Positions 1-19,140 are shown, numbered from the stretch's first letter. The stretch: DNA of 32,133 nt from a virus (IMGVR_UViG_3300010261_000005:1-32133), one strand, 5' to 3'. The notes: generated by a model from the letters alone, not told the origin. A program made the numbers and translations.

Positions 1-1385
1 CAAACCAACTCAAATCTTTTATTGCCGACCGCCAATTATGATTGTATTTAATGTCACTAGCTTTTTCCAGCCAAGCATCGCCCTGCCCTTCATCTTTTTC
101 AAAACCCAAAATACCCTCTCGCTGGAAAAACCCCCTATAAATAACAGGTGTAGCATAAGTTGTATTCTGTGAATTTTGGCAGATAAAATTATATATCCAG
201 AATGAATCTGGATAATAACTTAATGCAAATTTTATAGCATACGCACTGTAATAATTATTGAGCTTCATATCTTCCATCACCGCTCGCTGTATACAGCACC
301 ATAACTTATCGTGATCGTTCTGTTTGTTATAGCAAGCAAGTAACCACTCCAGGGCATTATGGCGACATTCCTGAAATTGTGCGTGCTGAGCAATGTTCTC
401 TGCTAAGTCGATTGCATGTTGTTGATCCTCTGGCGCAATATCCTCAATGCTGACATCACGGTAATCATCCCACCAAAGTAAGAGATCCATATATTCATGC
501 TCTTCGGCAGATAAGTGTTTACAGGTTGCTGAATCCAGCAATTCGGAGATTTCTTTATGCGAACCGCCCCAGCGTGGCATTCGAAACGGTATATATTCAA
601 CAAAAGGATAAAAAGTGTGAGGAAAAATAGTCAGGCAAACAGCAAGCCAATATTTTTGCCCGCCATCGTTATCATACTCAGGAAGTATATTGGGGCGAGG
701 CAAAACGGGGCATATTGCATCCTCAAACGAAAGTCCGGAATACGCCATCAACGCTTCCACTTCTTGCGGGGAGCGGCGGTGATAATTTTTCAGTGCGATC
801 ATTAATGGTATTCCTGCGACACTATCACCGTTAAGGTGTGCCGCCAGCCAGGCTGGCTGACCAAATACTTTTGAGTTGGTGCTGGTAAGTAATGCAGCCA
901 TCCATTGTCGTGGGTCACAATCAATTGCTTTAAGTGTAGCGATGACCATTTGTTCATTACATGCACCAGCACAAAGCCACATTGCATGTGTGGTATCATT
1001 TGCCCAGCCATAACTGCGATATAACCATGCACGGTGATTCCAGTATTGTGCTTCGGCAAGCCAGGCATGTGTAGAATGAGGTCTTGCTTGCTGCCAGGTT
1101 TTAATGAGTCTTAAACCTTCTGTTCCGGCATCAACTAGCGTGTTCATATCATAAAAATAGTTGCACATTTGGGTCCAGGATAAAAAATAGCGCTTTTCAG
1201 CCTGACGAGAAGTGAAACTCTCCTGTAATGCCTGGTTATAAATTTCATCTAGTTCCTGATAACGTTTTTCTTGTAACATATAAGGAATATTTGCGATTTG
1301 CCATTTTCTCTCAAGAGTATTAAGTGGCATTTTTTGGTCACACATCTTTTGCATTGCACTGAGTAAACGAGCATCCTGTTCCATA
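1..1385 (-). CDS. Hypothetical helical protein, C-terminus beyond window start (at least 461 aa)
   Basis: Hand translation of the minus strand gives an uninterrupted frame from ATG at 1385..1383 (MEQDARLLSAMQKM...) to position 1 with no stop; AAGGA RBS about 7 nt upstream. Absent from the ORF track, presumably because its stop lies outside the window. Start sits 10 nt after the stop of the upstream gene, so operon-like. Product not recognised. Confidence 0.6.
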
Positions 1386-1394
1386 GATATCCTT

Positions 1395-2111
1395 TTAATT
1401 AGGTTCAAAAATTTTAAATTCATTCCACGGCAATTTTTTCCAGTTACTGGATGGATCTTTCAACCATGCAGTGACTTCCTTTAAATCACGGTTCGCAGTG
1501 GCGACGGGTGTATCGTATATCATTAACCATTTTTGTCGGGCGCGAACATAAGCACTGGCATAATCTTCCCATGAAGCGAAACAATCTTGTGCTCTTTGAG
1601 CATTCAGTAATAACACTATCCAGGCCTGGTTTTCATCGCACCAGCCGAAACCGGCGATGCAACGAGTTAAAAAAGCAGTGCGCATACAGTCAAACGCCAG
1701 CGCATCCAGGACCTGGCCTTGTGCTGCCAGCTGTTCGTAAAAATCATGTGGAGAATTACCAAGCCCTGTAGCCCAGCGTTGTAATATAACGCCAATTTGT
1801 TGGTGGAAATCTTCGTTGCTTTGGTAAGTTTCTGTTCCTAACTCTTGTTTAACCTGTAGTGCAAGTTGTTGACGCTTATCATCAGTCAACTTTAAATCTA
1901 ACGTGAAGCCATTTACTGGCAGTCCATTACGACGAGCAACTATATCACCAATTGCTAATGCCCACTTACGTCTCTTTGTTGCTCGTCTTTTGTCCTTGAG
2001 TAGATCCTTTTCTTTTTCTTTAGCAAGAAAAGCATCGATTAGTGGTTTGTTTTTTTTGTATCTATAGATAAAAATAAATATTGCGACCAGGAGAACAATG
2101 ATAAGACTCAT
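1395..2111 (-). CDS. Hypothetical protein with N-terminal transmembrane helix, possibly DUF1266-like
   Basis: 238-aa ORF; N-terminus MSLIIVLLVAIFIFIYRYKKNK is a hydrophobic helix followed by a basic stretch. Start ATG overlaps the stop of the upstream 407-aa gene (TAATG). The DUF1266 assignment is from memory only. Confidence 0.55.
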   Translation of the reverse strand: MSLIIVLLVAIFIFIYRYKKNKPLIDAFLAKEKEKDLLKDKRRATKRRKWALAIGDIVARRNGLPVNGFTLDLKLTDDKRQQLALQVKQELGTETYQSNEDFHQQIGVILQRWATGLGNSPHDFYEQLAAQGQVLDALAFDCMRTAFLTRCIAGFGWCDENQAWIVLLLNAQRAQDCFASWEDYASAYVRARQKWLMIYDTPVATANRDLKEVTAWLKDPSSNWKKLPWNEFKIFEPN

Positions 2112-3334
2112 TATTTTTTAACCTCTGACAGGGGTAAGTAATGAGATGTCTGTAATGTCAAACTCTCTATCTCAAAGGAAATATTGCTGATATTTTGACC
2201 TGCAAATTGCGGATGCCACTCAGCGCCAGGGAATAACATTTCCGCAGAAGTAGCAACTATAGGGTCAATAGCATTAAGATAATGTAACTTATCAGGTGCG
2301 CTGTGTAACAGTAACCACTGCAACTCCACCGAAGGAGTTGCAAAGTGTTCTAATAAATGAAAGTTATTATGTAGTACACTTAGTAAGAAACTGGTTTCGT
2401 ATACTTCCGTTACATATTTCCACCCCTGATGCTCCGGTGTATTTTCATAAACAATACCCATACCTTCACAATCACTATGTCGAACTGCTTGTGGTGACAA
2501 CATCTGCAAAAGAGATAAAACATTGTCCGCATATTTTTTTACTGGATGACGATTTTGCTTACCTTTTATTTGATCAATTTTCAGTGAATCACCGATAACA
2601 TTAAGGGCAATAGTAACATGAGGAATATTATTGTTATCACGCAAACTGAATAACCGTAATTTATGTTGCTCAATTTGATTTGCATAATACTCGCCATAAC
2701 CACCGGTAAGATTTTTTCGATCATCAAACTGACCTACACAATGTTGCATATGCCATGATTCATAAGCCATCTCACGACGAAGGTTCGAATGACTGGCATC
2801 AAACTCAACAACTTTTCCGTCTGGCACATCAAGTATTAACTTTACGGTATTTTGTTCACTCGGTTGCCACCCTTTCTCGCGCCGTTGAAGCATTTTTTCA
2901 TGCTCTTCTTCACGCATTCTGAATGCGGCGTAGCAGGTTATGCGCTGTAGTTTTGATTCCAGACGGGTACCACATTTCCTGGAAAGAAATTCCACCAACT
3001 CTCGTTCTTTGGTTAATATTTGTTGATGATCGGTTTCGATATAATAAACTGTCGAAGTTGATACTGAGGCATTATTAAACTTCGATACCAGCCATTCCGG
3101 GAGTACATCATCATTTTTATTAAACAGTGAATATTCTGCTAGCGAGTTAATCTGTTGCGCCATTGGAAAGTCACTAATTAGCCATCGATAAAAATGGTTC
3201 AGCAACCATTTTTGGATGGTCTCATTATCCTGGCGACACAGACTTCTTTGCAAAATTGCTGTTTTTACTTCCGGGGCATTGATTACATCCCTTGCATTAT
3301 AATTTTGGTGAATATTCCCATTCATAACATCCAT
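2111..3334 (-). CDS. Hypothetical protein (407 aa), first gene of a three-gene minus-strand operon
   Basis: Long ORF with an AT-rich 5' intergenic region (3335..3549); translationally coupled to the next gene. No family recognised. Confidence 0.55.
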   Translation of the reverse strand: MDVMNGNIHQNYNARDVINAPEVKTAILQRSLCRQDNETIQKWLLNHFYRWLISDFPMAQQINSLAEYSLFNKNDDVLPEWLVSKFNNASVSTSTVYYIETDHQQILTKERELVEFLSRKCGTRLESKLQRITCYAAFRMREEEHEKMLQRREKGWQPSEQNTVKLILDVPDGKVVEFDASHSNLRREMAYESWHMQHCVGQFDDRKNLTGGYGEYYANQIEQHKLRLFSLRDNNNIPHVTIALNVIGDSLKIDQIKGKQNRHPVKKYADNVLSLLQMLSPQAVRHSDCEGMGIVYENTPEHQGWKYVTEVYETSFLLSVLHNNFHLLEHFATPSVELQWLLLHSAPDKLHYLNAIDPIVATSAEMLFPGAEWHPQFAGQNISNISFEIESLTLQTSHYLPLSEVKK

Positions 3335-3812
3335 CCGTGTTTATTATATCACTCAAGAAAATAATTAATGAATATAGATTTTTTATCTAAATCATCATGG
3401 TTGCAGGTACATACTCAAGTAAGCCACTCTAGAAAATAACGTAAACTCAATAGTGGCAACGTCACAAACTTTGAAAGTTATGTCTTATATTTGCAGTTTC
3501 TTTTAGTGAATAACTGAGATAAATGAAATTATTTTACATCCTCAATGATTCAGGCTGCAAGAGGACGGCAAATATATTCATAATTATCAGGGGATGAGCA
3601 TTCAGGAAAGTGGTCAATATCGTCAACTTTCTCTGTTATCACTACATGAAGATTTCGTGCAGGTACTCCCTTCTCTGCCACTTGCCCCCTCACATTTACA
3701 CTGGAGCCAACCCCGCCGATTGCGCTACAATGCCCGCCCTTAAAGTGGGGGCACTCCCCTAACCGCTTCATCAGGTGAAGCGGATCTGACCTGTCATCAG
3801 AACGAGAGAATT

Positions 3813-5174
3813 ATGTTTAAACCGGAACTCCTTTCCCCGGCGGGAACGCTGAAAAATATGCGTTACGCTTTCGCTTATGGCGCGGATGCTGTTTATGCGG
3901 GCCAGCCACGTTACTCCCTGCGTGTGCGCAACAACGAATTCAACCACGAAAATCTTCAGCTCGGCATCAATGAAGCCCACGCGCTGGGGAAAAAGTTTTA
4001 TGTCGTGGTCAACATTGCACCGCACAACGCCAAGCTGAAAACCTTTATTCGTGACCTGAAACCGGTGGTGGAAATGGGGCCGGATGCGCTGATTATGTCC
4101 GATCCAGGGCTGATTATGCTGGTGCGTGAACACTTCCCGGAAATGCCAATCCACCTCTCGGTACAGGCTAACGCCGTAAACTGGGCGACGGTGAAATTCT
4201 GGCAGCAAATGGGTCTGACCCGCGTGATCCTCTCTCGCGAACTGTCACTGGAAGAGATTGAAGAGATCCGCAATCAGGTGCCGGATATGGAGATCGAAAT
4301 CTTCGTTCACGGCGCGCTGTGCATGGCCTACTCCGGTCGCTGCCTGCTCTCTGGCTATATCAACAAGCGCGACCCGAACCAGGGCACCTGCACCAACGCC
4401 TGCCGCTGGGAGTACAACGTCCAGGAAGGGAAAGAAGATGACGTCGGCAACATCGTACACAAGTACGAGCCGATTCCGGTGCAAAATGTTGAGCCGACGC
4501 TGGGTATCGGCGCGCCAACCGACAAAGTGTTTATGATCGAAGAAGCCCAGCGTCCGGGCGAGTATATGACCGCGTTTGAAGATGAGCACGGCACTTACAT
4601 CATGAACTCGAAAGATCTGCGCGCCATCGCCCATGTTGAACGCCTGACCAAAATGGGCGTGCATTCGCTGAAAATCGAAGGCCGTACCAAATCTTTCTAC
4701 TATTGCGCACGCACCGCGCAGGTTTACCGTAAAGCTATCGATGACGCCGCTGCGGGCAAACCGTTCGATACCAGCCTGCTGGAAACGCTGGAAGGTCTGG
4801 CGCATCGTGGCTATACCGAAGGTTTCCTGCGTCGTCATACCCACGACGATTATCAGAACTACGAATACGGTTATTCGGTTTCTGACCGCCAGCAGTTTGT
4901 TGGTGAGTTTACCGGTGAGCGCAAGGGGGAGCTCGCGGCGGTAGCGGTGAAAAATAAATTCTCCGTTGGCGACAGCCTTGAGCTGATGACGCCGCAAGGC
5001 AACATTAACTTTACCCTTGAGCATATGGAAAACGCCAAAGGTGAAGCTATGCCGGTCGCACCAGGCGATGGTTATACTGTGTGGCTCCCGGTGCCGCAGG
5101 ATCTTGAGCTAAATTACGCGCTGCTGATGCGTAATTTCTCCGGGGAAACCACGCGTAACCCCCACGGTAAGTGA
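3813..5174 (+). CDS. yegQ: U32-family peptidase YegQ (TrhP, tRNA hydroxylation)
   Basis: 453-aa ORF, MFKPELLSPAGTLKNMRYAFAYGADAVYAGQPRYSLRVRNNEF..., recognised as E. coli YegQ including length; GAGAG RBS upstream of ATG. Confidence 0.9.
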   Translation: MFKPELLSPAGTLKNMRYAFAYGADAVYAGQPRYSLRVRNNEFNHENLQLGINEAHALGKKFYVVVNIAPHNAKLKTFIRDLKPVVEMGPDALIMSDPGLIMLVREHFPEMPIHLSVQANAVNWATVKFWQQMGLTRVILSRELSLEEIEEIRNQVPDMEIEIFVHGALCMAYSGRCLLSGYINKRDPNQGTCTNACRWEYNVQEGKEDDVGNIVHKYEPIPVQNVEPTLGIGAPTDKVFMIEEAQRPGEYMTAFEDEHGTYIMNSKDLRAIAHVERLTKMGVHSLKIEGRTKSFYYCARTAQVYRKAIDDAAAGKPFDTSLLETLEGLAHRGYTEGFLRRHTHDDYQNYEYGYSVSDRQQFVGEFTGERKGELAAVAVKNKFSVGDSLELMTPQGNINFTLEHMENAKGEAMPVAPGDGYTVWLPVPQDLELNYALLMRNFSGETTRNPHGK

Positions 5175-5258
5175 TTAATTTCGATTATTTTTCCCGGATG
5201 GAAAATTCTTAGAAACCGATCACATACAGCTGCATTTATTAAGGTTATCATCCGTTTC

Positions 5259-5345
5259 GCTGAAAAACATAACCCATAAAATGCTAGCTGTACCAGGAAC
5301 CACCTCCTTAGCCTGTGTAATCTCCCTTACACGGGCTTATTTTTT
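5259..5345 (+). ncRNA. cyaR: CyaR (RyeE) Hfq-dependent small RNA
   Basis: Sequence gctgaaaaacataacccataaaatgctagctgtaccaggaaccacctccttagcctgtgtaatctcccttacacgggcttatttttt matches the E. coli CyaR sequence as I recall it. Ends in a terminator hairpin (cctgtgtaa / ttacacggg) plus T6. A -10-like TATCAT lies about 8 nt upstream of the 5' end, and a TCACA CRP half-site at about 5220..5224. Confidence 0.8.
5319..5345. other. P2 attachment core (prophage/chromosome junction, locI-type) within the 3' end of cyaR
   Basis: aatctcccttacacgggcttatttttt is the reverse complement of the 27-nt P2 att core AAAAAATAAGCCCGTGTAAGGGAGATT as I recall it. It lies between chromosomal cyaR and phage ogr, the expected junction for a P2 prophage. 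Confidence 0.65.
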
Positions 5346-5409
5346 ACGCGTAATTCAATGAAATAAAAGGATTTATTTCTGGTCACGTCCACACATTGAC
5401 CACATCGAC

Positions 5410-5445
5410 AAAAAAAGCCCCTCGACTGAGGGGCTTTCTGTTTGT
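5410..5445. terminator. Bidirectional rho-independent terminator between cyaR and ogr
   Basis: aaaaaaa-GCCCCTC-gact-GAGGGGC-tttctgttt: 7-bp GC stem flanked by an A-run on one side and a T-rich run on the other; 3 nt downstream of the ogr stop. Confidence 0.6.
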
Positions 5446-5447
5446 AA

Positions 5448-5666
5448 CTACATCCACATAATTTGCTGCCCTGACGGCAACGGGTGCGGCCTTACGGCGT
5501 GGACTTCTCCCGGCTTCACGATGTATCTCTGTACCGACTCATAGGTGATGAACGTGGCGCTGCAATTCACGTTCTGGCACTGGTGATAACGCTCTTTTGT
5601 CGTGTCAGTGATATAGCGGCTTGTACGCGCATGTGCGGCATGCTGGCATAAAGGACAATGAAACAT
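5448..5666 (-). CDS. ogr: Late transcription activator Ogr (zinc finger)
   Basis: 72-aa product MFHCPLCQHAAHARTSRYITDTTKERYHQCQNVNCSATF... with a Cys4 arrangement; start chosen at the ATG with AAGAGGTG RBS (ORF track start at 5729 is an upstream extension). Confidence 0.9.
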   Translation of the reverse strand: MFHCPLCQHAAHARTSRYITDTTKERYHQCQNVNCSATFITYESVQRYIVKPGEVHAVRPHPLPSGQQIMWM

Positions 5667-5747
5667 CGCGAGCACCTCTTCCGGTTTTGTTGATGGTGTC
5701 ATTTTAGTTAATTTATCCTTATAAAACAAATAGATAAAATAAAAACA

Positions 5748-6911
5748 TCACTCATCATCTTCTGTTTCGTACTCCACATCAGAAAGCCTGACCTCAAGCT
5801 CTAAGGACGTCGTGAAGCCGCTATTATTCAGAAAATGTGTCACCTTAGTGATTGTCCAGTCCTGCTCGTCTATGACGCGCTTAAAGCCTGACACTTTAAC
5901 CGGTGTTTCCGTGTAAATATCTGCCCGACCGGTAGCCAGGCTGATGGAGAACTCCGCCACACCCCGTTGCAGTTTATCCCACTTCGCCTGAGCGGCGCGC
6001 ATGGCCTGCGCTTTTGTGGCATATACCGTGGTCAGGGCAAAAACATTGTCAGCCTCACCGGCCATGTATTCACCTTCGCGCGCTTCCGGTACTTTTGGCG
6101 CTTTCTTCTGCGTGACCGGTTTCGCTTTCGGGTGCTCCAGTGCGCGCAGGTGTTTCTCTTTCTTTTTGCGTTTCAGTTTTACCTTCTGCTTTTGCGGCTT
6201 CGGGTCTTTGGTGTGAAGCCACTTTGCCGTTACGCCGGTATAGGCTCCACGGTCAGCAATCGCAAAATGATGACGGTCGCCGTCGCTGCGGGTGATGATG
6301 ACCTGCGGAATTTTCTTACCGCTGGCCGTCACCCCCTGCCCCGCCTTAAGAAACAACAGTTTTCCCATTTTTACCGAGACCTCACCGCCGTTGCGTTCTG
6401 CAAGACGGGTCAGGAATTTCGCATCAGACTCCTGCGACTGGTCGATGTGCGGGATTTTAATTCCGGCCAGTGACGGAGCGACACTGGCTTCCAGTCTGTT
6501 ACGGGAGGCTATCGCCTCAACAATCGCACCGAGCGTGGTGTCATGCCAGGAGCCTTCACGGCGGGAATTGAGCGTCCCGCGAAAATCTGCACTCCGGGCG
6601 CGGATGGTAACCACATCCGGCGCGCCCCGGTGTTCAACCTCATCAACGGTAAATTTCCCTTTGCATACCAGGGCAAAACCTTTCCAGCCGATATACACCG
6701 TCAGGACAGCGCCACGAACCGGCAGCCCGACCTGCCCGTCGGCATCGTTCAGTTCAATATCAAGCTGGTCAGCCTCAAAGCCCCGGTTATCCGTCAGGGT
6801 CATGCTCATCAGACGGTCGCTGATATTGCCGGTAATATCCCTGCTGTCGAGCATCAGCATGTAATCCGGCGTCAGCGTACTGCCTGCATCAAATGTCAGT
6901 GCATCCAGCAT
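5748..6911 (-). CDS. D: Tail protein D (late control gene D)
   Basis: 387 aa, same length as P2 gpD; lysine-rich central linker (KQKVKLKRKKKEK). Confidence 0.9.
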   Translation of the reverse strand: MLDALTFDAGSTLTPDYMLMLDSRDITGNISDRLMSMTLTDNRGFEADQLDIELNDADGQVGLPVRGAVLTVYIGWKGFALVCKGKFTVDEVEHRGAPDVVTIRARSADFRGTLNSRREGSWHDTTLGAIVEAIASRNRLEASVAPSLAGIKIPHIDQSQESDAKFLTRLAERNGGEVSVKMGKLLFLKAGQGVTASGKKIPQVIITRSDGDRHHFAIADRGAYTGVTAKWLHTKDPKPQKQKVKLKRKKKEKHLRALEHPKAKPVTQKKAPKVPEAREGEYMAGEADNVFALTTVYATKAQAMRAAQAKWDKLQRGVAEFSISLATGRADIYTETPVKVSGFKRVIDEQDWTITKVTHFLNNSGFTTSLELEVRLSDVEYETEDDE

Positions 6912-7390
6912 TATCCCGCCCCCGTCATACCCGTGAATTTAGTCGCCATACTGCCAGCCTTACCGATGAGCGATTCCGCCTGTTTACCGATATCGCCATA
7001 AAGCGCGGCCAGTGATTCATCAACGCGGGTGAGCGACAGCGTAAAATCAATTTTCCGGGGTGTGCCGTCTGCAAAGAAAATACTCCCTGTTTCACTCACC
7101 TTGCTGATGACATACATGCCGTAAATCATGCCGGTGCCATCCAGCAACGGCCACGACCGGCCTTCATCTGCCATCAGCCTGAGCGTGGTCATCGTCAGCT
7201 TTCCGCCGGTCAGTTCGGGATAAAGCACACCGGCAAGCGTCATGTTTTCCTCGCCAACACCGAGAAACTGGTAGGCATCCCGTTTACCGATACGGGAATT
7301 TGACGGCCAGCGATAATCTGATTCACGCTGCATGGTCTGGTGTGGCAGCGTCTGGCGCATAAAAACAAACATACCTAACGCGAGCATCAT
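6911..7390 (-). CDS. U: Tail protein U
   Basis: 159 aa, matches P2 gpU in length and position; stop overlaps D start. Confidence 0.9.
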   Translation of the reverse strand: MMLALGMFVFMRQTLPHQTMQRESDYRWPSNSRIGKRDAYQFLGVGEENMTLAGVLYPELTGGKLTMTTLRLMADEGRSWPLLDGTGMIYGMYVISKVSETGSIFFADGTPRKIDFTLSLTRVDESLAALYGDIGKQAESLIGKAGSMATKFTGMTGAG

Positions 7391-7404
7391 TTTTCGTCAC
7401 CTCC

Positions 7405-9852
7405 TTAACCGTCATGCATCATGCTGGCACGGGCGCGCGCACGTTTATCCCGCTCGTATTTTTCGAGCGCATCCTGTAACTGGCGGTCGAGCTGTGTCCC
7501 CGGCGCAGTACCACCCGTCAGGCTGATGTGATATTCGTTTTTACTCTGGTCTACATAAGAGCGGCCAGCCGGTGCCGTGACCGGCTGATAAGCCTGATAA
7601 CCTGCATAAGAGCTGGTCGCCGGAATATAACCACCGCTGCCATACGTGGCGGCTTGAGTTCTGGCGGCGGTCTGGTCAAGTGTGTCTGACTCTTTGTTGA
7701 TGACACCGAGTTTTTCCAGTACCCAGTCAATACCACTGCGCAGTTTGTTGAACGCATTAAGCGGCAGCATCAGCGCGTCAGCCAGTGCCTGCCCGAACAT
7801 GACGCCCGTGTCACGGCAACGGTTCAGGGTGTCCTGGGTGGCTTTGACCGGGGCAATCAGGTTTTTAAACCACTGCCACGCGGCCTGTAACTTTTCACCC
7901 AGCCAGTCAAACACCGGTTTAAGTGGCGTGAACAGTTCCCCCACCGGCGCAAATGCCGCTTTCAGCCCTTCCACCACACCGCCAAAGAATGCGCTGACAG
8001 GCTCCCAGTATTTACGGATAAGCAACGCCCCGGCGACAATTGCAGCCACCACGGCCACAACCGGCCAGCTAATCGCCCCGATGGCCGTCATAACGGCACT
8101 ACCAACAGTCGTGAAGATTGCCCCCATTGCGCCTGCTGCCGCGATGATGGCATTGATGCCGGTGATAACCGGCCAGGCTACGAGGCCAATGGCACCGATG
8201 ACACCAGTCAGCGCCAGTGCACCACCGACAATGAGGCCGATGGTTGACGCCAGTGATTTGTTTTTCTGGATCCAGCCGTCGAGTTTTAACACATACTTTG
8301 TGGCCGTCTGCGTGAGATTACGCAGTGCGCCTTCCTGCTGGTCAAACAGGTCAGTCCCCACCGCTTCATAAGCGGACTGAAACTCCTTAAAGTCACCGCC
8401 GAGGTTATCCTGCATGATTTTAACCAGCTCTTCCGTTTTACCGTCCGAGGCTTTCAGCGTGGCGGTCAGCTTATCCAGTTTTCCGCTTGCTGCCGCTGCC
8501 AGTAAAACGTTCGCTGATTTCAGGGCTTCCTCACCAAAAATGGTTTTAAGGTATTCCCCCTTCTGAGACGTTCCCAGCTTATGCTTATCAAAGCTGGCCT
8601 GAATCTCTTTCAGAATGGTGAACAACGGACGCATATTCCCCTTTTTGTCCGAGGTTTTAACGCCAAGCTCTTTGAGTGCATCCCATGCTTTTCCAGTCGG
8701 TGCCTGTAATCGGGTGACAACGGCACTGCTACCCGTACCCGCCATTGACCCCCTGATGTTATTGTCATGCAGCACACCGGTCATGGCCGCTGCCTGCTCA
8801 AGACTTACACCTGCCGTCCTCGCAACCGGGCCGAGGTAAGTCAGTGCATCACTGAGTCCCTGAAAATCAGCCGCCGACTTATTCATCGTTGCCGACAACA
8901 CGTCGCCCACATGGCTGACATCATCATTTGACAGTTGAAAGGATGCCTTAGTCCCCAGCAACAATTGCGCGTTTTCTTCCATCGACCGCTGGTTTGCCAG
9001 TGCCATATTCAGTGTGACCGGCGTTGCTGCCTGAATAGCCGCAGCATCTCCACCCGCTTTCGCAATGATAATCTGTGCACCGGCTGCATCATCTGCCGAG
9101 GCTGCGGTATTGTCGCCGAGCTGGCGCGCCTGCTTGCGGAGTGCGGTCATTTCGGCGGAGTCTTTTGCCACACTCAGCACGGCCTGCAATTCTGAGTTTT
9201 TCTGCGCAAACTCATAGCCGGGCATCAGCAGCTTAACTCCGGCCATCGTTCCCGCCGCCGCAATCCCCACACCGGCAGCGCCCACCGAGGCCATATTTCC
9301 GGCCAGTTCCTTGCCTGCCTGATAACGCTGTTTGACTGCGTTAAGTTTTGCCTGTTGCGCACTGACACGCGCCAGCGCGTCACGCTGCCGGTTAAGCTGT
9401 GCGGTGGTTTCACTGATACGGTTTTTCAGCCCTCGTTCATCATGCGCCAGATTACGGGTATTAATACCCGCCTGACTCAATTCCTGACGCTGGCGCTGTA
9501 CCGACAATCTCAGGCTGTTATATTTCGCCTGTAACTCAGACGCATTTTTACGCGCGGCTTCCATTGCCTTTGCCTGTGCATTTGTCGGTCGTTCAGTATT
9601 TTTAAACTGGACAGCCAGAGCTGCGGCTTCCTGTCTGGCTTTTTTCAGTTCCTGACCAGTCACGGCGAGCTGTGCACTGGTCTTGCGGAATCCCTCAATA
9701 CGGGATGCGTGACCGTTCAGCTCGCGCAGTGATTTTTGTGTTTCCCGGATATCCCCCGACAGCGACTTACTCGCTGTACGGATGGATTTAAACGGGCGGG
9801 ATGCCTGGTCAACAGCCCTGAGCAATACCTGTAATTTTACATTGTTACTCAT
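7405..9852 (-). CDS. T: Tail tape measure protein T
   Basis: 815 aa, P2 gpT length; coiled-coil N-terminus, hydrophobic Gly/Ala-rich central segment, position after E/E'. Confidence 0.9.
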   Translation of the reverse strand: MSNNVKLQVLLRAVDQASRPFKSIRTASKSLSGDIRETQKSLRELNGHASRIEGFRKTSAQLAVTGQELKKARQEAAALAVQFKNTERPTNAQAKAMEAARKNASELQAKYNSLRLSVQRQRQELSQAGINTRNLAHDERGLKNRISETTAQLNRQRDALARVSAQQAKLNAVKQRYQAGKELAGNMASVGAAGVGIAAAGTMAGVKLLMPGYEFAQKNSELQAVLSVAKDSAEMTALRKQARQLGDNTAASADDAAGAQIIIAKAGGDAAAIQAATPVTLNMALANQRSMEENAQLLLGTKASFQLSNDDVSHVGDVLSATMNKSAADFQGLSDALTYLGPVARTAGVSLEQAAAMTGVLHDNNIRGSMAGTGSSAVVTRLQAPTGKAWDALKELGVKTSDKKGNMRPLFTILKEIQASFDKHKLGTSQKGEYLKTIFGEEALKSANVLLAAAASGKLDKLTATLKASDGKTEELVKIMQDNLGGDFKEFQSAYEAVGTDLFDQQEGALRNLTQTATKYVLKLDGWIQKNKSLASTIGLIVGGALALTGVIGAIGLVAWPVITGINAIIAAAGAMGAIFTTVGSAVMTAIGAISWPVVAVVAAIVAGALLIRKYWEPVSAFFGGVVEGLKAAFAPVGELFTPLKPVFDWLGEKLQAAWQWFKNLIAPVKATQDTLNRCRDTGVMFGQALADALMLPLNAFNKLRSGIDWVLEKLGVINKESDTLDQTAARTQAATYGSGGYIPATSSYAGYQAYQPVTAPAGRSYVDQSKNEYHISLTGGTAPGTQLDRQLQDALEKYERDKRARARASMMHDG

Positions 9853-10272
9853 TCGTGTTTCCGCTTCGCCGGAGCGCCTTTTCGCGCCATGTGATGAGTT
9901 CGGTCAGGCTCATGGGATACAGTTCTGATGGCGGCCAGTGAAATATCACTGCCACATCCGCCATCAGGTCATCGACCGAGAGATTTTTCGGAAACGTCAC
10001 TGCACCGAGTTCGGCGACAAAAAACCGACCACCTTACCGGCCAGCGCCACAAGGTCAGGCAGTTCCAGTGCGGCGACTTCCTGCTCGGTCAGCATCGGTG
10101 CAGTCATGCGCGGCAGCACCTTAATCAGTGCATCGACTTCGGAGTTCGCGACCGCAGCCAGACTGACACCGCGCAGCGTCCCGGCGTTAGGTTTCATCAG
10201 CGTGACCTGTTCGATAACCTGCTCACCACGTTTGACCGGATTGTCCAGGGTAATGACGTTTTCTTTGTTCAT
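9845..10272 (-). CDS. E': Tail assembly chaperone E+E' (programmed -1 frameshift product, about 142 aa)
   Basis: Zero-frame codons GGT TTT TTG (Gly83-Phe84-Leu85) give a T TTT TTG slippery heptamer at 10024..10018 (minus strand). Hand translation of the -1 frame from 10018 reads VAELGAVTFPKNLSVDDLMADVAVIFHWPPSELYPMSLTELITWREKALRRSGNTNE and stops at TAA 9847..9845, overlapping the T start. 85 + 57 = 142 aa, the P2 E+E' length. Confidence 0.75.
9997..10272 (-). CDS. E: Tail assembly chaperone E
   Basis: 91 aa, matches P2 gpE; contains the slippery site near its 3' end. Confidence 0.9.
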   Translation of the reverse strand: MNKENVITLDNPVKRGEQVIEQVTLMKPNAGTLRGVSLAAVANSEVDALIKVLPRMTAPMLTEQEVAALELPDLVALAGKVVGFLSPNSVQ

Positions 10273-10328
10273 GGTTTTCTCACTTCTGAATCGGGGTTAA
10301 CCGGTCAGCCAGGCTGACCGGATGACAA

Positions 10329-10847
10329 TTACAGGCCGATATTGCGGCGGTGTTGCTCCAGCCGGTCGACGCCGTTCACCTTCTCAATCATGTTGATGGT
10401 GTCGATTTCGACCAGCTCCTTACCGTCCATCGTCAGCCGGAAATAGGTGCAGACCACGGAGATTTTCGACTCGGTGTCTTCTCCCTGTTTACCCTCGCCG
10501 GTGTCGATTTCTTTCTGACGTCCACGCATGACCACCTCGACGGCTACCGTTTCGCCGGTATCGTCGCGCTGGTAAGAGCCTGCAAAACGAATCGGCACGG
10601 CATCCACACCGGTTGCGGCGTAAAGCTCCCAGATAACCGAATCCGGGAAGCCCCCGAGCGACCACTCCATTGACAGCGCATCGTCATCAAGGCCGAGGTC
10701 TACCGGTGCGCTGCCGTTCATCCCCGCACCGCGATAGTTTTCGAGCTTACGGGTCAGTTTTGGCAGCGTGACGGACTTTGCAACGCCCTGATAGCTGTAG
10801 CCGTTCAGAAAGACGTTCATTAACTTGAGTTTGCGCGGCATTGCCAT
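10329..10847 (-). CDS. FII: Tail tube protein FII
   Basis: 172 aa, P2 gpFII length and position. Confidence 0.9.
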   Translation of the reverse strand: MAMPRKLKLMNVFLNGYSYQGVAKSVTLPKLTRKLENYRGAGMNGSAPVDLGLDDDALSMEWSLGGFPDSVIWELYAATGVDAVPIRFAGSYQRDDTGETVAVEVVMRGRQKEIDTGEGKQGEDTESKISVVCTYFRLTMDGKELVEIDTINMIEKVNGVDRLEQHRRNIGL

Positions 10848-10859
10848 CGGTCAGGCTCC

Positions 10860-12050
10860 TTAATTGCTGTTAACCGAAGTGACCAGATTTGCCAGGTATT
10901 TATCGGTAATACGCTGGCGTAGGGTCAGGTTTTCAAGAGGAGGCACCGGTGTATAGTCGTAGTCGATATACAGTTTTCCGGCCTTGAGGGTTTCCGCATC
11001 GTTGGATTCTTCGCTGAACCAGCAGGTCGCATCCACGATATAGCCGTTTGTTTTCAGCTCACGGAATTTGGCATTGATGCCGTCAACGATGTCGCGAATC
11101 AGCGTTGCAGTGATGGGCTTGTCCACCGCCCACATGTGCGCCTCAGCCATCGTGTCGGCCAGCACCTGCGCGGTGCGGGTGTAGTTTTCAAAGAGGAACA
11201 GCGGGTCATCAGAGCAGGTACGGTTACCCCAGAAGCGGAAACCGTCACGGCGAATCAGCGTTGTGACACCTGACTCGTTCAACAGGTCAGCATCGGTGCC
11301 GGACTCCTGCAAATCCCAGAATACAGAGGCACTGATGCCGGTAACACCGTTTACCCCGACGTTGGACAGCGTTTTATGCCAGCCCTGCTCCTGGTCGATT
11401 TTTGCACGCAGACCCAGCGCACGGGCGGTGGCATACGCGGTGGCGGTGGTACTGGTGACCGTATCCCATGCGAGGAAATCCGGCCAGATAACCATCAGTT
11501 CACGCTGGCTGAAATTCTGGCGGTAGGCTTTCACCTCAGAAATGGTTTTACAGCCCCATGCGCTGATATACCCGAAAGCGCGCAGCTTCTGACAGACTGA
11601 TGCCAGTGCGACGGCAACCTCTTTGGTGTCCAGTCCCGGCACACCGAGAATGCGCGGCTTAACACCGGTTACCGACTCCGCCGCCAGCAGGGCTTTCAGT
11701 CCGGTGTACTGACCGTTTTCGTCAGTGGTGCCGATGATATTGGAAACGGTCTGCGCGAGTTTCGTTTCCTCGTCGTCGCCGGTGCCGTCTTCCACACGCA
11801 CGACAACGGTGACCGGTTTTGACTGGTCGGCGATGGCCTGCAACGATGCCGCCAGCGTGCCTTTTTTACCGGCCTTTGCAATTGCGCTCTGCACATTGGT
11901 AATCAGCACCGGTTTATTGAGGGGGAAGGTTTCCGCATCCGCATCGCTGGCCGTGCAGACCATGCCGACAATGGCCGTGGATACAGTGGAAATGACGCGG
12001 GTGCCGTCGTTAATCTCCAGCACCTGCACGCCATGATGATAGTCACTCAT
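10860..12050 (-). CDS. FI: Contractile tail sheath protein FI
   Basis: 396 aa, P2 gpFI length and position. Confidence 0.9.
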   Translation of the reverse strand: MSDYHHGVQVLEINDGTRVISTVSTAIVGMVCTASDADAETFPLNKPVLITNVQSAIAKAGKKGTLAASLQAIADQSKPVTVVVRVEDGTGDDEETKLAQTVSNIIGTTDENGQYTGLKALLAAESVTGVKPRILGVPGLDTKEVAVALASVCQKLRAFGYISAWGCKTISEVKAYRQNFSQRELMVIWPDFLAWDTVTSTTATAYATARALGLRAKIDQEQGWHKTLSNVGVNGVTGISASVFWDLQESGTDADLLNESGVTTLIRRDGFRFWGNRTCSDDPLFLFENYTRTAQVLADTMAEAHMWAVDKPITATLIRDIVDGINAKFRELKTNGYIVDATCWFSEESNDAETLKAGKLYIDYDYTPVPPLENLTLRQRITDKYLANLVTSVNSN

Positions 12051-12450
12051 CCGTTTAACTCCGTGGTTAATGGGTGCAACTATTTTCTGTTGGGCAGTGC
12101 ATGAGACGCTATTTGACCTGGCTGGTCAGTGGATGAAACAACAGATAAAGAAAAGGCGGGCAATCAGCTCGCCTGTCCTGATTTGTACACACTCATTTTC
12201 CGACTGACAGTTTACATAGCCCAAACGCTATCAAATCTGACAGCCTGCTTTGAGCGAGTAACTAAATTTGATTTAAATAAATTATAAGGATTCAAATATT
12301 ATTGGCACAAATTCCTGAGATGCAAACAGTCACACTAAGTGTTCAAACAAGGTTCTGGACTACGGCTAACTCATCAGTTAAGTTTGTTTCCGACCTGTCG
12401 TTTCTTCCCTGTCAGGAGTCACTTTTCGTGTTATTTTTTAAGGATGTTTT
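12051..12450. promoter_or_regulatory. Divergent intergenic region: late promoter for FI (minus) and promoter for the Z/fun-locus cargo gene (plus)
   Basis: 400-bp non-coding, increasingly AT-rich gap between divergently oriented genes; AAGGA RBS 7 nt before the 12451 ATG. No individual promoter hexamers could be assigned with confidence. Confidence 0.4.
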
Positions 12451-13230
12451 ATGAGTAATGAAACACAATCATTCCTTAGTCAATTGCTAATATCCATAAT
12501 CTCTATATCTTTAGGGTCATTTCTTTTTGCTGGAATCCTAGAGAGCTACAAAAAAGACCAAGATCTTCAGGAGGAGTTTATAAAGGATTACTTTAGGCCA
12601 ATGATGAAATTACAAAGTTCTTGTTCATCTTCACATAATGAACTATTTCTAAAGTATGGAGAGTTATCTGCTTCTTATCAGCTCATGTATAATGAAATAG
12701 TACATATGGCAATGAGCCCTGATTCAGAATTAGGACAACATTATGAAGTTCTCCCGATGTCTCTTATTAAAACAAATGAAGAGTTAAAAAAAAGAGTTGA
12801 AGATCTTGAAATGACGGTAAAAAAATGCAATATCGATTTATTCCTTAAGTACGAAGAGCTTGCATTAGTTACTGGTTCATATCCAGAGTTTAAGAGACTG
12901 GCGAAAAAACACACTGACACAATTAACTCCATCTATTCAGAAAGACAAAAAAAAGCAAAGGAAAATGCAAAAAATATAGACCCTGATCAACTAATTCCAT
13001 TGATGCGGAAATATATTGCCATGGATCCACACACCAATGTAAACAAATCCATGCTTGCCAGTGAAATAGATAACATATCTAAACTAACAACACAGCATAA
13101 TTTGATAATGGCAGAATATGAGGAGTTAATTTTCAAAGAAGATAATGATTTATTTATAACTCTTCATGATCTTTATGCAATCAAAATTAGTGAAAAGTAT
13201 TCAGGTGGATTTATCAGTTGGATATTTTAA
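12451..13230 (+). CDS. Cargo protein at the P2 Z/fun variable locus: membrane-anchored coiled-coil protein of unknown function (candidate anti-phage/abortive-infection factor)
   Basis: 259-aa ORF in markedly AT-rich DNA between FI and G, in the Z/fun orientation (divergent from FI, convergent with G). Residues about 8..30 (FLSQLLISIISISLGSFLFAGIL) form a predicted TM helix; the remainder is charged and helical (K/E-rich). No P2 backbone equivalent recognised. Confidence 0.75.
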   Translation: MSNETQSFLSQLLISIISISLGSFLFAGILESYKKDQDLQEEFIKDYFRPMMKLQSSCSSSHNELFLKYGELSASYQLMYNEIVHMAMSPDSELGQHYEVLPMSLIKTNEELKKRVEDLEMTVKKCNIDLFLKYEELALVTGSYPEFKRLAKKHTDTINSIYSERQKKAKENAKNIDPDQLIPLMRKYIAMDPHTNVNKSMLASEIDNISKLTTQHNLIMAEYEELIFKEDNDLFITLHDLYAIKISEKYSGGFISWIF

Positions 13231-13308
13231 AACATGATAACTCATCAGATACAATGCTAACTATGTAGAACGCGTAAATCTGTGAAGGTTACCAATGTGT
13301 TAGGTAAT

Positions 13309-13332
13309 GTCCGCTCCTTGCACAGAGCGGAC
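13309..13332. terminator. Inverted repeat between convergent cargo gene and G (possible bidirectional terminator)
   Basis: GTCCGCTC-cttgcaca-GAGCGGAC, 8-bp perfect stem; no strong U-tract on either side. Confidence 0.35.
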
Positions 13333-13381
13333 TGTCAGATTAGGCTTTACTCTGTGCTATAGATATGTCAGCTCATACAAC

Positions 13382-13909
13382 TTATTGCGGCATTTCCGGC
13401 CATTCAGGATTTGCAGGATCCACACGGCTGACCAGAACACTGTAGCGTTCCCATGCTTCCAGTCGGCTACGCTCCTCATCTGTTGCCATGTTCAGCCTGA
13501 CAGCGCGCTCCAGTGGCTGAATAACGCTTTCCGCTTCGGAAAGTAACGCGGCCTTTTGTGATTCTGCCTGTTGTTGCTGTTCGTCTGCCGTATAAATCCG
13601 CTTAATCACGGCACCATCCTTAAACATCCATTTACCTGAGTCATCAGCACGTCGGTTGGCGGTAATATCAGGAACCTCGACAACGCTAAAACCTTCAGGG
13701 TTGAGCGTTGAAGCATCTCTGGTGATGCCGACAATTATATTATTCTCATCGTAAACAATCTTTATCGTGTCTTCCTGAAAATTACTTACTTCCTCATACC
13801 AGTTTTTTCCCTCTTCGGACCATAACCAGATAACATCAAAATTTTTTGTCAGTTGATATTGGGCAACAGTTTTTGGATTACCCGCAGTAATATTTTTTAA
13901 ATGCTGCAT
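13382..13909 (-). CDS. G: Tail fiber assembly protein G
   Basis: 175 aa, matches P2 gpG (MQHLKNI...[11 protein letters not shown]). Confidence 0.85.
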
Positions 13910-13912
13910 AAA

Positions 13913-16648
13913 TTACACCTGTGCGACGTTATACCATGTGCCATTGATGTATTTTTGTATTGGTCTGAATACTGCGGGGTCATCACCATCGACTTCACCG
14001 ACAATACCAAGCCCGGTAATTACGTGCCCTGCTTTCTCATACATCACCCCTTTCTGCATGGTCTGGACAACACGTGTGCCAAGTCTGACATCTCTCACAT
14101 AGCGGGAATCAAAGTTACCGTAATCCGAGGGATTAACACGCCCCGTAATATTTATGGTTTTATTACTTTGAACGCTTCCGGAGACAAAGCGCATAACATG
14201 GACGCTATTAGCATAAACATCCAGATTACCATCACCATTTTGTTTAAAGCCCGTGTCATTATCACCCAAAACAATCGAATTACCGCCAAGAGCACTGGAT
14301 GTTCCTATACCCAGAGCACCATTCAATTGACCACCAGATAACGGCAGTGCACCGACATCTCCCGCTGTAGGTTTTCGCGTTGTGGTATAAAACTCAGACC
14401 AGTCAGCCTCGAATCCGTAACCGTCACGAGCAGAACGATAAAAAATACCACCGTTCTTATAATTAACGCGAAACTGGGCGGCGGGACAACTTCCTTCACC
14501 GATATTAAAATGAAGAATTAACGTTGATGCCCCACCAATAGTTGCGTTATAGGCTCCGCTACTCCAGTTCCATCCAACGGCTTTATCATTCGCAACAGTG
14601 TCTCCTGTTTTTCCTGAAGCAAATGCACCAATATTTTTCGGCGTCAGGTTAATATCTGATGTTCCATCAAACGAAACGTTATTAATTTTACGGGCTGTTT
14701 TCAGCTTTGTTGCTGTCGCCGCATTGCCGGACAGTTCACCAGAAAGGCCAGCACTGAATGTCTGTTTCGCGCCCCATGTCTGGGCTTCGTCAATGATTGG
14801 TACTCGTCTTGTTGTGATCGTGCGGCTTCCCGGATTTCCTGAAATGCGCACCATAAAAAAGCGGTAGTTGGCTTTACTTACAGTGCTGCGCCATACATGC
14901 ATTGAGCGCCCCGTACCGGAATCATCACTCGGACCAACTGCGATGTTTATCAGGTTGCCATCAATGACGCCCCAGTCCATACCGTCGGGAATGTTGGTCA
15001 TGTTATCAAGCCGAACGGTTATCAGACTGCCCGGCACAAAGTCGTGGGTCTGCCAGTCCAGGCTGGTGAGCTTTGCCACTGCACCGCCGATACCCAGATT
15101 CAGGGGAAGTGAATACGAGGTGTAGACTTCCCGCCATTCGCTCCACGAGCTGCCGGTATAGACGCGCTCAAACGTGCGACCTTTAAGGGTTGCACCTGTT
15201 CCGGCAGTTGTATAACGCTGCCATACGTTAACACCATCAAAGCGCCTCAACACTTCCAGAATACCGAGGACTGTCACGCCGTTTCCGTCCAGTACTGGAC
15301 CGTTGGTCGCTTTACCTGTAACGCTGTAAATACCTGGTGAAGTCACATCATTCAAATCCCCGTCGTAATAACGACTCTCTGACTGATGACCGACTCTTAA
15401 CCACGGTTCCCACTGCGGATTTGATGCATCCCAGCTTGCCGCAAGGCAGCGGACATACATATTTCCACGGCGAGTGGTATAACGTTGCGTTCTTCCATAA
15501 TTCCCGCCTTCGAGGATCTCAAGCGTCCCCTGAGCAAAGCCGCCTTCCTCTGGATAATTGCGTTCATATGAAGCTATAGCCGAGCTACTGTTACGCCATA
15601 AACCAAGATGTTCGGCGGCTCCAAGCGTATTCAGGTCTATAGTCGTACTCAAAGGGCGGGTAGCTGATTGAGTGTGACGCCATACGCCCCATGGACCATC
15701 AGTACCATTCCACTTATTGGCGAGTTTACGCATGTATACATTGCCGTCTCTCGTGATAAAGCGTTGCGTGCCTGCAAAATTGCCGGCAGCAAAAACCTCA
15801 AGCACACCGACAGCATTATCTTCCGGGAAATTTTTCTCCAGTGTTGCGTTAGTTGAGGTAGCTTTAGACCAGATCCCCAGATAAGCCTTAACTGGACCAA
15901 ATGTATTCAGATCAGCATCAACCGGCATTTCGCCGTTGTTTTTCATAAACGTCAGGCTGGTAACGCCAACATTGTCCAGAAAAGCTGATTTATCCTGGAT
16001 ATCTGCACCGTTCTGATTTTTCGCCAGACGTGAATTTGCGTTGTCATTCGCAGCCTTGACCGCTTTTGGCGTTGCCGCCAGTTTTTCACTGGTGCTGTTT
16101 GTTGCGCTGCTTAACTGGGTAAAACCTTTTTCTGTCAGCGTAGCGTCAGGATGGCGGCGGGACTGCTCATGTTCTGCGATTTTGTCATCGACGTAATCCT
16201 GCGTCGCCATCACTGTGCTGGCATCAATACTCAGCTCAACGGACGCCACGTTACTGACAATAATAACCATGCGGCAGGTCTGCGCACGCCCGGAGCCTTC
16301 AGCGAGTTCAGGCTTATAGCTTTCTGCCATGTTGGCGACCGCAATCAGTGTTCCGGCATCGTCATACAGACCAAGCTCACGCATCCAGAAGCCGCCCACT
16401 TCGGGCGGTACAACCAGTTCAGCCACGATATAGTTTTTATTCTTGTTATCCACGCTGACTTTATTCAGAGCGTGACGCCAGACCTCATGCACCAGTTTCG
16501 TCTGACCGGCATCCGGCACCGGCAATTTGCCATTACCGTCACCCACGGCCATTGCAGACAGGGTTACTTTTTTCCCGCCGGGGACAGTGGCGGCTGCCAG
16601 CTTTGCGGCTCCGGCAGTAGTGATAACGGTTTTAAATTTCGTGCTCAT
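13913..16648 (-). CDS. H: Tail fiber protein H (extended variant, 911 aa)
   Basis: N-terminus MSTKFKTVITTAGAAKLAAATVPGGKK... is P2 gpH-like. The protein is much longer than P2 gpH (669 aa) and carries internal repeat modules (GTQRFITRDGNVYMR / GRTQRYTTRRGNMYVR / NVWQRYTTAGTGATLKGRTFERVY). Confidence 0.9.
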   Translation of the reverse strand: MSTKFKTVITTAGAAKLAAATVPGGKKVTLSAMAVGDGNGKLPVPDAGQTKLVHEVWRHALNKVSVDNKNKNYIVAELVVPPEVGGFWMRELGLYDDAGTLIAVANMAESYKPELAEGSGRAQTCRMVIIVSNVASVELSIDASTVMATQDYVDDKIAEHEQSRRHPDATLTEKGFTQLSSATNSTSEKLAATPKAVKAANDNANSRLAKNQNGADIQDKSAFLDNVGVTSLTFMKNNGEMPVDADLNTFGPVKAYLGIWSKATSTNATLEKNFPEDNAVGVLEVFAAGNFAGTQRFITRDGNVYMRKLANKWNGTDGPWGVWRHTQSATRPLSTTIDLNTLGAAEHLGLWRNSSSAIASYERNYPEEGGFAQGTLEILEGGNYGRTQRYTTRRGNMYVRCLAASWDASNPQWEPWLRVGHQSESRYYDGDLNDVTSPGIYSVTGKATNGPVLDGNGVTVLGILEVLRRFDGVNVWQRYTTAGTGATLKGRTFERVYTGSSWSEWREVYTSYSLPLNLGIGGAVAKLTSLDWQTHDFVPGSLITVRLDNMTNIPDGMDWGVIDGNLINIAVGPSDDSGTGRSMHVWRSTVSKANYRFFMVRISGNPGSRTITTRRVPIIDEAQTWGAKQTFSAGLSGELSGNAATATKLKTARKINNVSFDGTSDINLTPKNIGAFASGKTGDTVANDKAVGWNWSSGAYNATIGGASTLILHFNIGEGSCPAAQFRVNYKNGGIFYRSARDGYGFEADWSEFYTTTRKPTAGDVGALPLSGGQLNGALGIGTSSALGGNSIVLGDNDTGFKQNGDGNLDVYANSVHVMRFVSGSVQSNKTINITGRVNPSDYGNFDSRYVRDVRLGTRVVQTMQKGVMYEKAGHVITGLGIVGEVDGDDPAVFRPIQKYINGTWYNVAQV

Positions 16649-16658
16649 TGTTTCTCAC

Positions 16659-18090: not shown

Positions 18091-18094
18091 GGTT

Positions 18095-19074: not shown

Positions 19075-19140
19075 AACGGGAAGGATGCCGCCGGGTCATA
19101 CCGGCGGCAATGTGACGATGAGGTGTCAGGAATGGCACAA

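Follow-up and report, generated by a model that had tools for sequence, protein, structure and literature searches.

Parts of the island analysed here resemble systems that have already been described. It lies at the start of a 32,133-nt stretch of Escherichia coli DNA (IMGVR_UViG_3300010261_000005:1-32133; the window, by which we mean this whole stretch, positions below 1 denoting sequence of E. coli strain A37 beyond the window start), and carries genes for a PcfJ-family protein (gene 1), a DUF1266 protein (gene 2), and a DUF4034 protein (gene 3). Its nearest counterparts are Salmonella STM2135 (t0737) with the two genes upstream of it, and the corresponding genes of Klebsiella and Citrobacter, all uncharacterised, which share the gene order, the 1-nt and ~10-nt coupling, and the baeR...yegQ neighbourhood. 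The E. coli proteins are 59-66% identical to those of Salmonella and Klebsiella, and the nearest homologues detected outside Escherichia reach only 61-68% identity. In these three genera no yegP gene is called in the baeR-yegQ interval, which the cassette fills at 53% (Salmonella) and 49% (Klebsiella) guanine-plus-cytosine (GC), whereas the E. coli operon is inverted, sits between yegP and yegQ, has 40% GC, and occurs in ~5% of genomes. The yegQ locus has already been termed an islet insertion site in Salmonella, where the ~700-amino-acid (aa) gene STM2135/t0737 was treated as a conserved flank and not as islet cargo (PMC7400221). In a Salmonella deletion screen, delta-STM2133 was mildly hyper-swarming (1.55 +/- 0.46) and was not complemented; this weak score is linked to the PcfJ gene, and STM2133-STM2134 to the module, by locus-tag order only.

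Single components recall other systems. The ybe/hscC cluster of E. coli K-12, like the island, combines a DUF1266 gene with a Sel1-type partner and a translationally coupled third gene, but the third partner there is a J-domain co-chaperone beside an Hsp70 instead of a PcfJ-family protein, and the Sel1 genes are divergent, short, and without DUF4034. PcfJ of Enterococcus pCF10 and polyvalent-like proteins of phages and conjugative elements share with gene 1 the PF14284 core and the signature E..M.HC.G / SLRD...PHVT / Q.KGK.N..P...Y / D. These mobile-element proteins often comprise several domains and 1,000-2,300 aa, and neither DUF1266 nor DUF4034 is ever found near them, whereas the island subfamily is chromosomal, always DUF1266-paired, and small: among 1.84 billion cluster representatives, 2,208 PcfJ relatives were detected, only 51 of them at E <= 1e-30. 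The TacAT/AtaRT toxin-antitoxin systems consist of a GNAT toxin of ~160-180 aa and a small adjacent DNA-binding antitoxin gene, unlike gene 1, which is 404-407 aa long, has extra domains, and is neighboured by DUF1266 and DUF4034. In eukaryotic NatA, a large TPR auxiliary subunit wraps around the GNAT catalytic subunit and tethers it at the place where it acts. The literature searched contained no mention of DUF4034, of PcfJ-like or PF14284 proteins, or of the RefSeq protein accessions, and mentioned DUF1266 only incidentally, for ybe/hscC genes; the module itself is undescribed there.

A conserved three-gene module

The island is real and, in E. coli, acquired; it belongs to a three-component module that is widely conserved but uncharacterised. 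As the original prediction, made from the window alone, had stated, the minus strand of positions 1-3334 holds three co-directional, tightly coupled open reading frames (ORFs). Gene 1 (2111..3334, minus strand) is 407 aa as the longest ORF and 404 aa from the ATG at 3325, the start indicated by RefSeq and by homologues. Its stop codon shares base 2111 with the start codon of gene 2 (1395..2111, minus strand; 238 aa) in a 1-nt TAATG overlap. A 10-nt spacer with a Shine-Dalgarno-like AAGGA (1385..1394, minus strand) separates gene 2 from gene 3, whose first 461 codons (1..1384, minus strand) are open to the window edge; the 10-nt gap had been read correctly, while the start of gene 3 is at 1384 and not, as first given, at 1385. 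The 3' end of gene 3, presumed to lie beyond the window start, was found in A37, where the full gene (A37 locus 8282..10384) encodes 700 aa and its last 239 codons fall outside the window.

Domain searches placed all three products in defined families, including the two that had been called unrecognised. Gene 1 matches PF14284 (PcfJ) over residues 144-272 with 27.0 bits, above the gathering cutoff of 25; 34 of its 36 homologues also match this family, and RefSeq names the product 'PcfJ domain-containing protein'. The match of gene 2 to PF06889 (DUF1266; E = 2.5e-18, 67.3 bits, cutoff 27) bears out the earlier suggestion of a DUF1266-like protein, and gene 3 matches PF13226 (DUF4034) over residues 30-306 (E = 1.5e-102, 343 bits, cutoff 21.3).

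Homologues of the module genes occur across Proteobacteria, and the order PcfJ-DUF1266-DUF4034 is the same in E. coli, Klebsiella, Salmonella, Citrobacter, Burkholderia, Variovorax, and Lysobacter. In Klebsiella, Salmonella, and Citrobacter the cassette lies between baeR and yegQ, co-directional with baeR; Burkholderia cenocepacia carries the trio in a different genomic context, and the Lysobacter version begins with a 624-aa fusion of PcfJ and DUF1266, after which comes DUF4034. Across 80 loci, one genome per species, DUF1266 directly followed the PcfJ-like gene or was fused to it in 79, the 80th being cut by a contig end. Two architectures were found: PcfJ followed by DUF1266 and DUF4034 (36 loci, 12 genera), and a ~780-aa soluble protein followed by PcfJ and DUF1266 (42 loci, 16 genera). 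The one ~780-aa partner that was scanned has C-terminal TPR matches; the possibility that this partner is a divergent DUF4034 was rejected by hmmsearch and hhalign. There was no further conserved neighbour across the 80 loci. Natural fusions include PcfJ+DUF1266 single polypeptides (P0068, P0072, and others), PcfJ+DUF1266+TPR (P0244), PcfJ+TPR (P0256), PcfJ+ankyrin, and a giant InPase+PcfJ protein. Close coupling of genes, their joint occurrence at nearly every locus, and fusions found in nature typically mark proteins that act as a single physical unit, and we consider a functional linkage of the three genes highly probable. The flanks of the module are syntenic across the Burkholderia cepacia complex, Variovorax, part of Pseudomonas, and Enterobacteriaceae.

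One Rhizobacter genome has two tandem DUF4034 genes after PcfJ-DUF1266 (locus 10008..14047), and both architectures are present in single genomes of Serratia sp. DD3 and several Burkholderia species, which suggests paralogous systems of different specificities.

Insertion between yegP and yegQ

Window positions 1-3812 are 100% identical to E. coli strains A37 and GF130. The gene order in A37 is mdtBCD-baeS-baeR-yegP, then a 201-aa gene, DUF4034, DUF1266, and PcfJ on the minus strand, then yegQ, ogrK, and a P2-like prophage, with an intact yegP just past the window start. Alignment of A37 to K-12, whose 146-bp yegP-yegQ spacer holds no island, delimits 5,196 bp of inserted DNA (A37 locus 7526..12721, window -1474..3721) that displaces only 21 bp of the spacer. 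The right end of the inserted DNA falls at 3721/3722, marked by the 5' region of yegQ (trhP; 3722..3812, plus strand), which lies outside the island, is common to K-12, and is matched in 5,424 of 5,426 complete E. coli genomes. Window 1-3721 thus covers the 3.7 kb nearest the promoter of this 5.2-kb insertion, which is non-mobile and separates yegP from yegQ. The original prediction had proposed a horizontally acquired replacement of yegP; acquisition is supported, as set out below, while the DNA was inserted between yegQ and an intact yegP, and yegP was therefore kept and not replaced.

GC content is 34-45% over positions 1-3600 against 51-57% in yegQ, in line with the AT-richness noted earlier, and the whole cassette, at 40.1%, is 15 points below the ~55% of the flanking genes. 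The island interior was found in 298 of the 5,426 complete E. coli genomes (~5%), always single-copy and chromosomal, which marks it as accessory; carriers include CFT073, 536, IHE3034, S88, NU14, LF82, ATCC 25922, and a Nissle-derived strain, all of which we take to belong to phylogroup B2. Escherichia was absent among the 80 best species-representative matches, the top match being Citrobacter at 56% identity, and since the E. coli proteins are so distant from those of Salmonella and Klebsiella, the gene set in E. coli is not just an orthologue passed on vertically. This compositional deviation and patchy distribution, together with the empty site in K-12, support a horizontally acquired island, as judged from sequence comparison. 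In A37, no integrase or transposase gene is present among the island genes, its ends have no terminal repeats or att-like sites beyond short chance-level matches, no target duplication was seen at the junctions, and no tRNA target or flanking direct repeat was found. Elsewhere the cassette is closer in composition to its host: cassette and host GC are equal in Burkholderia and Lysobacter, and compare as 53% vs 56% in Salmonella and 49% vs 58% in Klebsiella. By these compositional measures the module is native in some lineages and foreign in E. coli. The locus adjoins a P2-like prophage and CyaR, and together with the Salmonella islet (PMC7400221) this supports the earlier view of the site as an insertion hotspot.

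Two alleles of the island, 96.8% identical, occur in E. coli, that of the window in 3 genomes and the other commonly. Their divergence is restricted to approximately window -300..3900, and the flanks and the fourth island gene are 99.7-100% identical. Between the alleles, the ratio of nonsynonymous to synonymous substitution rates (dN/dS) is 0.13 for PcfJ, 0.23 for DUF1266, and 0.13 for DUF4034, and all three ORFs are intact in the 298 carrier genomes. These dN/dS values indicate purifying selection on real proteins and, with the homologues across Proteobacteria, show that the genes are real.

Upstream of gene 1, the insertion continues as a non-coding part with 36% GC overall (3335..3721), mapped by its junction with K-12 sequence, in which the operon promoter must sit. 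A scan for consensus promoters and terminators found no sigma-70-like site upstream of the start codon, its sole match being inside gene 1 (3224-3253). A 73-aa ORF at 3550..3771 is not annotated by RefSeq in strains A37 or 536. At the other end, beyond the window start, the fourth island gene (A37 locus 7616..8221, window ~-1384..-779, minus strand) encodes a 201-aa protein with a signal peptide (ANA-G cleavage) and has no family match and no PHROG match. Its product is identical in both E. coli alleles (one synonymous change), while the other three genes differ by ~3%. The candidate homology of the E. coli and Salmonella fourth genes was rejected, as BLASTP shows them to be unrelated.

A PcfJ-family protein with a predicted GNAT-like core

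The gene 1 product is predicted to be soluble, with no transmembrane (TM) segment. Its AlphaFold2 (AF2) model is confident (pLDDT 87, pTM 0.72), and the elements within residues 164-307 follow the GNAT order b1-a1-a2-b2-b3-b4-a3-b5, forming a putative GNAT-like alpha/beta core at residues ~160-310 (2405..2857, minus strand). The complete GNAT order continues with a4-b6. Nearly all Foldseek neighbours of the model have the GNAT fold, among them ESCO1/2, SpeG, RimL, AtaT/TacT, FemX, and L/F-transferase. Two other interpretations of the conserved motifs were dropped when both structure searches returned GNAT folds: a PD-(D/E)xK nuclease, and a protein tyrosine phosphatase-like HCxxGxxR motif, for which the spacing of the loop arginine is also not conserved.

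Residue conservation was assessed in 36 orthologues and in 77 distant superfamily members. Gene 1 has the entire superfamily signature (E192, M196, H198-C199, G201, R232, P238, T241, Q255, K257-G-K259, N261, P264, Y268, and D288), each residue of which is kept in >=88% of the aligned distant relatives, and most in >90%. Among these, R232 is kept in 73 of 73, T241 in 72 of 73, G258 in 71 of 72, N261 and Y268 each in 70 of 72, C199 in 64 of 65, and E192 in 57 of 58; Y217 is likewise nearly invariant. The pair H198-C199 (2738..2743, minus strand) is near-invariant across both sets. The most conserved segment of the family is Q255-I-K-G-K-Q-N261..P264...Y268, of which the loop Q255-I-K-G-K-Q-N261 (2552..2572, minus strand) joins strand 250-257 to helix 266-279. 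In GNAT enzymes, motif A (Q/R-x-x-G-x-G/A) binds the pyrophosphate of coenzyme A (CoA) at the b4-a3 loop; Q255-I-K-G258-K-Q260 sits at this position in the model, and the canonical Q-x-x-G-x-G is present in 9 of 72 distant relatives. The conserved polar constellation looks like an active site, and gene 1 probably encodes a catalytic subunit.

A membrane-anchored and a helical-repeat partner

The DUF1266 protein is the only one of the three with a TM segment. As the original prediction had noted, it is membrane-anchored: an N-terminal helix (residues ~2-20; Kyte-Doolittle maximum 2.09 at residue 1) is followed by a basic stretch and then by an all-alpha domain, and both the helix and an RRRKWAL motif are conserved in all 35 aligned partners. 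This conserved order of helix and basic stretch places the globular domain in the cytoplasm. The AF2 model of DUF1266 is all-alpha (pLDDT 90) and had no fold neighbour in the PDB, while the island DUF1266 profile aligns with K-12 YbeU (hhalign probability 89%, E = 2e-6). We propose that gene 2 encodes a membrane anchor or adaptor.

The gene 3 product is soluble, with no TM segment, and the C-terminal half of its relatives contains Sel1 repeats (PF08238). Most invariant positions of DUF4034 are W, G, P, and R, a composition that would fit a scaffold better than an enzyme. With its predicted Sel1-like helical-repeat half, gene 3 is proposed to encode a scaffold or substrate-recognition subunit.

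Proposed function and alternative explanations

In the arrangement that we consider most likely, the three proteins would assemble at the cytoplasmic face of the inner membrane. The DUF1266 protein, which spans the membrane once, would be the anchor or adaptor; the 700-aa DUF4034 protein, with its Sel1-like helical repeats, would serve as scaffold or in substrate recognition; and the PcfJ-family protein would be the catalytic subunit, with a GNAT-like (acyl-CoA N-acyltransferase-like) core. The near-invariant Q-x-K-G-K-x-N-x-x-P loop would correspond in position to the GNAT CoA-pyrophosphate loop, the active site would comprise E192, H198-C199, R232, T241, Y268, and D288, and a group, probably acyl, would be transferred onto a protein or an envelope-associated acceptor. 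What the analysis shows is the structure of the genes, the insertion and its distribution, the linkage and fusions of the three genes, membrane anchoring of one subunit only, purifying selection, and similarity to GNATs in the modelled fold; the physical complex, its catalysis, and the acyl donor and acceptor are what we infer. By analogy, the module would resemble Nat complexes in setting a large helical-repeat partner beside a GNAT-like subunit, with the proposed difference that the tether would be to the membrane, through DUF1266, and not to the ribosome.

Several results weigh against this interpretation. The Foldseek matches to GNATs are weak and in the grey zone (best E-value 0.014). The last Gly/Ala of motif A is mostly Q or E in the PcfJ superfamily. 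None of the 36 family members matched a Pfam acetyltransferase family, even at E <= 5, the family profile retrieved nothing at E <= 10 from PDB sequences, and single-protein searches of the same sequences gave no match. The two large helical partners are not homologous to each other (hhalign probability ~1%). Gene 1 resembles the GNAT superfamily in its modelled topology and its best structural neighbours, but differs from it in the absence of a sequence match, the degenerate motif A, the invariant His-Cys pair, and the additional N- and C-terminal helical domains. Given these borderline structural scores and the lack of any link in sequence, we classified gene 1 as having a GNAT-like fold, and as probably an enzyme, and not as a member of the GNAT superfamily. 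An enzymatic PcfJ core with a GNAT fold has, in our estimate, about an even chance of being correct, and the full mechanism, in which a helical-repeat scaffold and a GNAT-fold PcfJ catalytic subunit form a complex tethered to the inner membrane, slightly less than that. A more ambitious version is unlikely as a whole. In it, the module would be a previously unrecognised three-component enzyme system, widespread in Proteobacteria, whose scaffold would direct a Cys/His-dependent GNAT-fold transferase at the inner membrane to one particular protein or envelope precursor; it would be the membrane-tethered equivalent, in bacteria, of the Nat-type complexes of eukaryotes, and the same catalytic domain would be weaponised in phage and plasmid polyvalent proteins.

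Some of the same features could point instead to an anti-phage or anti-mobile-element (abortive-infection) system, with a helical-repeat sensor and a GNAT-like toxic effector acting, for example, by aminoacyl-tRNA acetylation like TacT/AtaT. In E. coli the island is accessory, low in GC, and placed at a hotspot beside a P2-like prophage, phage genomes often encode the PcfJ core, as do large polyvalent-like proteins (one fused to InPase), the GNAT toxins AtaT and TacT are among the structural matches of gene 1, and TPR-like repeat sensors are frequent in defence systems. Nevertheless, in PADLOC-DB v2 genes 1 and 2 were unmatched and gene 3 retrieved only PDC-S32 (E = 0.0014, 16.7 bits; not significant), PHROG had no match for any component, and neither database gave a significant match for the fourth gene, the ~780-aa partner of the second architecture, or two fusion proteins. 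The DUF1266-linked module was detected by tblastn in none of 50,697 phage records, and the only eight plasmid records with a module protein are all 0.3-1.3 Mb, chromid-like, and non-mobilizable. The E. coli genes also appear, at 96% identity, on nine IMG/VR contigs, always at or near a contig end, and we read these as boundary overshoots of a prophage beside yegQ, such as the P2-like prophage in the window. The other 71 viral loci encode only distant PcfJ-core proteins (244-2,266 aa) and lack both DUF1266 and DUF4034 in their neighbourhood, from which we conclude that the PcfJ domain is used by mobile elements while the DUF1266-linked subfamily is a stable chromosomal module. (Four separate PcfJ-core genes are present on one jumbo-phage-sized viral contig, the 289.8-kb IMGVR_UViG_3300029288_000059.) Within genera the module keeps to stable, syntenic positions on the chromosome, in Burkholderia and Lysobacter its GC resembles that of the host, it is under purifying and not diversifying selection, and it has no antitoxin-like small gene beside it; the phage or plasmid carriage or variable defence-island context of a defence system was not found. 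The defence island suggested by the original prediction is therefore not upheld by the database searches, the lack of a phage copy, the stable synteny, and the mode of selection, and we regard a defence role as distinctly unlikely.

Functions other than defence would account for other parts of the evidence. A proteostasis or adaptor module akin to K-12 ybeQ-ybeR-djlB and ybeT-ybeU-djlC-hscC, in which PcfJ would be a membrane-recruited binding module and not an enzyme, is suggested by the pairing of K-12 ybeR and ybeU with Sel1-repeat genes and overlapping J-protein genes beside hscC, by the YbeU alignment, and by Dickeya, which keeps HscC, a J-protein, and DUF1266 together. However, no J-domain or Hsp70 gene, and hence no hscC-type cluster, was present in or beside the module at any locus examined, the polar constellation of the PcfJ superfamily is typical of catalytic or ligand-binding sites, and the role of the ybe-cluster DUF1266 proteins is itself not established, leaving this explanation a slim chance. 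We give an equally low likelihood to an envelope-stress accessory of the Bae/Mdt regulon that would be controlled by BaeSR and modify a precursor of the inner membrane or envelope, a role compatible with the enzyme model. In Klebsiella, Salmonella, Citrobacter, and Buttiauxella the module follows baeSR-mdtABCD immediately and in the same direction, a resistance-nodulation-division (RND) pump is encoded near it in B. cenocepacia, one of its subunits is membrane-anchored, and in Lysobacter and Acidovorax it is within ~5 kb of mdoG/mdoH-type osmoregulated periplasmic glucan genes; the latter two genera differ in module architecture, and this nearness may be coincidence or an envelope hint. Yet RND pumps and two-component systems are so abundant that adjacency to them is weak evidence, the E. 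coli operon is inverted and has yegP between it and baeR, no match to the BaeR box within 3 mismatches was found anywhere in the window, and no envelope gene is consistently linked across genera. Least probable, to the point of being almost negligible, is that the island is orphan immunity cargo of type VI secretion (T6SS) or contact-dependent inhibition (CDI) systems, as in the Salmonella yegQ SAIDI-1 islet, or decaying foreign DNA. The same chromosomal site does host an orphan-immunity islet in S. Typhi (PMC7400221), and the island DNA is AT-rich, but STM2135/t0737 is treated there as a conserved flank, the module proteins are large, cytoplasmic, and form a fixed trio conserved far beyond T6SS contexts, and their ORFs are uniformly intact and under purifying selection.

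If correct, the membrane-tethered enzyme complex would provide a first functional frame for three orphan families, PcfJ, DUF1266, and DUF4034, which are present in major pathogens including extraintestinal pathogenic E. coli (CFT073, 536), Salmonella, Klebsiella, and the Burkholderia cepacia complex. PcfJ chemistry would also bear on host manipulation by the phages and conjugative elements that carry this domain. At its defined site, the E. coli copy is naturally present in some strains and absent from others, so that genetic tests are straightforward. Even if the module is not an enzyme complex, the readings as a yegP replacement and as a defence island are corrected, and insertion at yegP-yegQ is documented for E. 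coli in addition to Salmonella; none of these findings overturns current knowledge.

The adjoining prophage

A P2-like prophage (ogr, gpD, tail genes, sheath, tail fibre, portal, gpA) fills the remainder of the window (~5400..32133). Between yegQ and the prophage ogr lies the CyaR/RyeE small RNA gene (5257..5342, plus strand; 100.7 bits), the only match in an Rfam scan and outside the island. The prophage is 90-97% identical to that of A37, with indels, and since window 1-3812 is 100% identical to the same strain, island and prophage have different histories.

Two ORFs with no Pfam or PADLOC match fall in the two stretches over which the prophage of the window has no alignment to that of A37. 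A 259-aa ORF (12451..13230, plus strand) between the tail-sheath and tail-fibre-assembly genes could be prophage cargo, possibly defence-related. A 440-aa ORF (28654..29976, minus strand) lies between the portal gene and gpA, in an interval where A37 has an FRG-domain gene.

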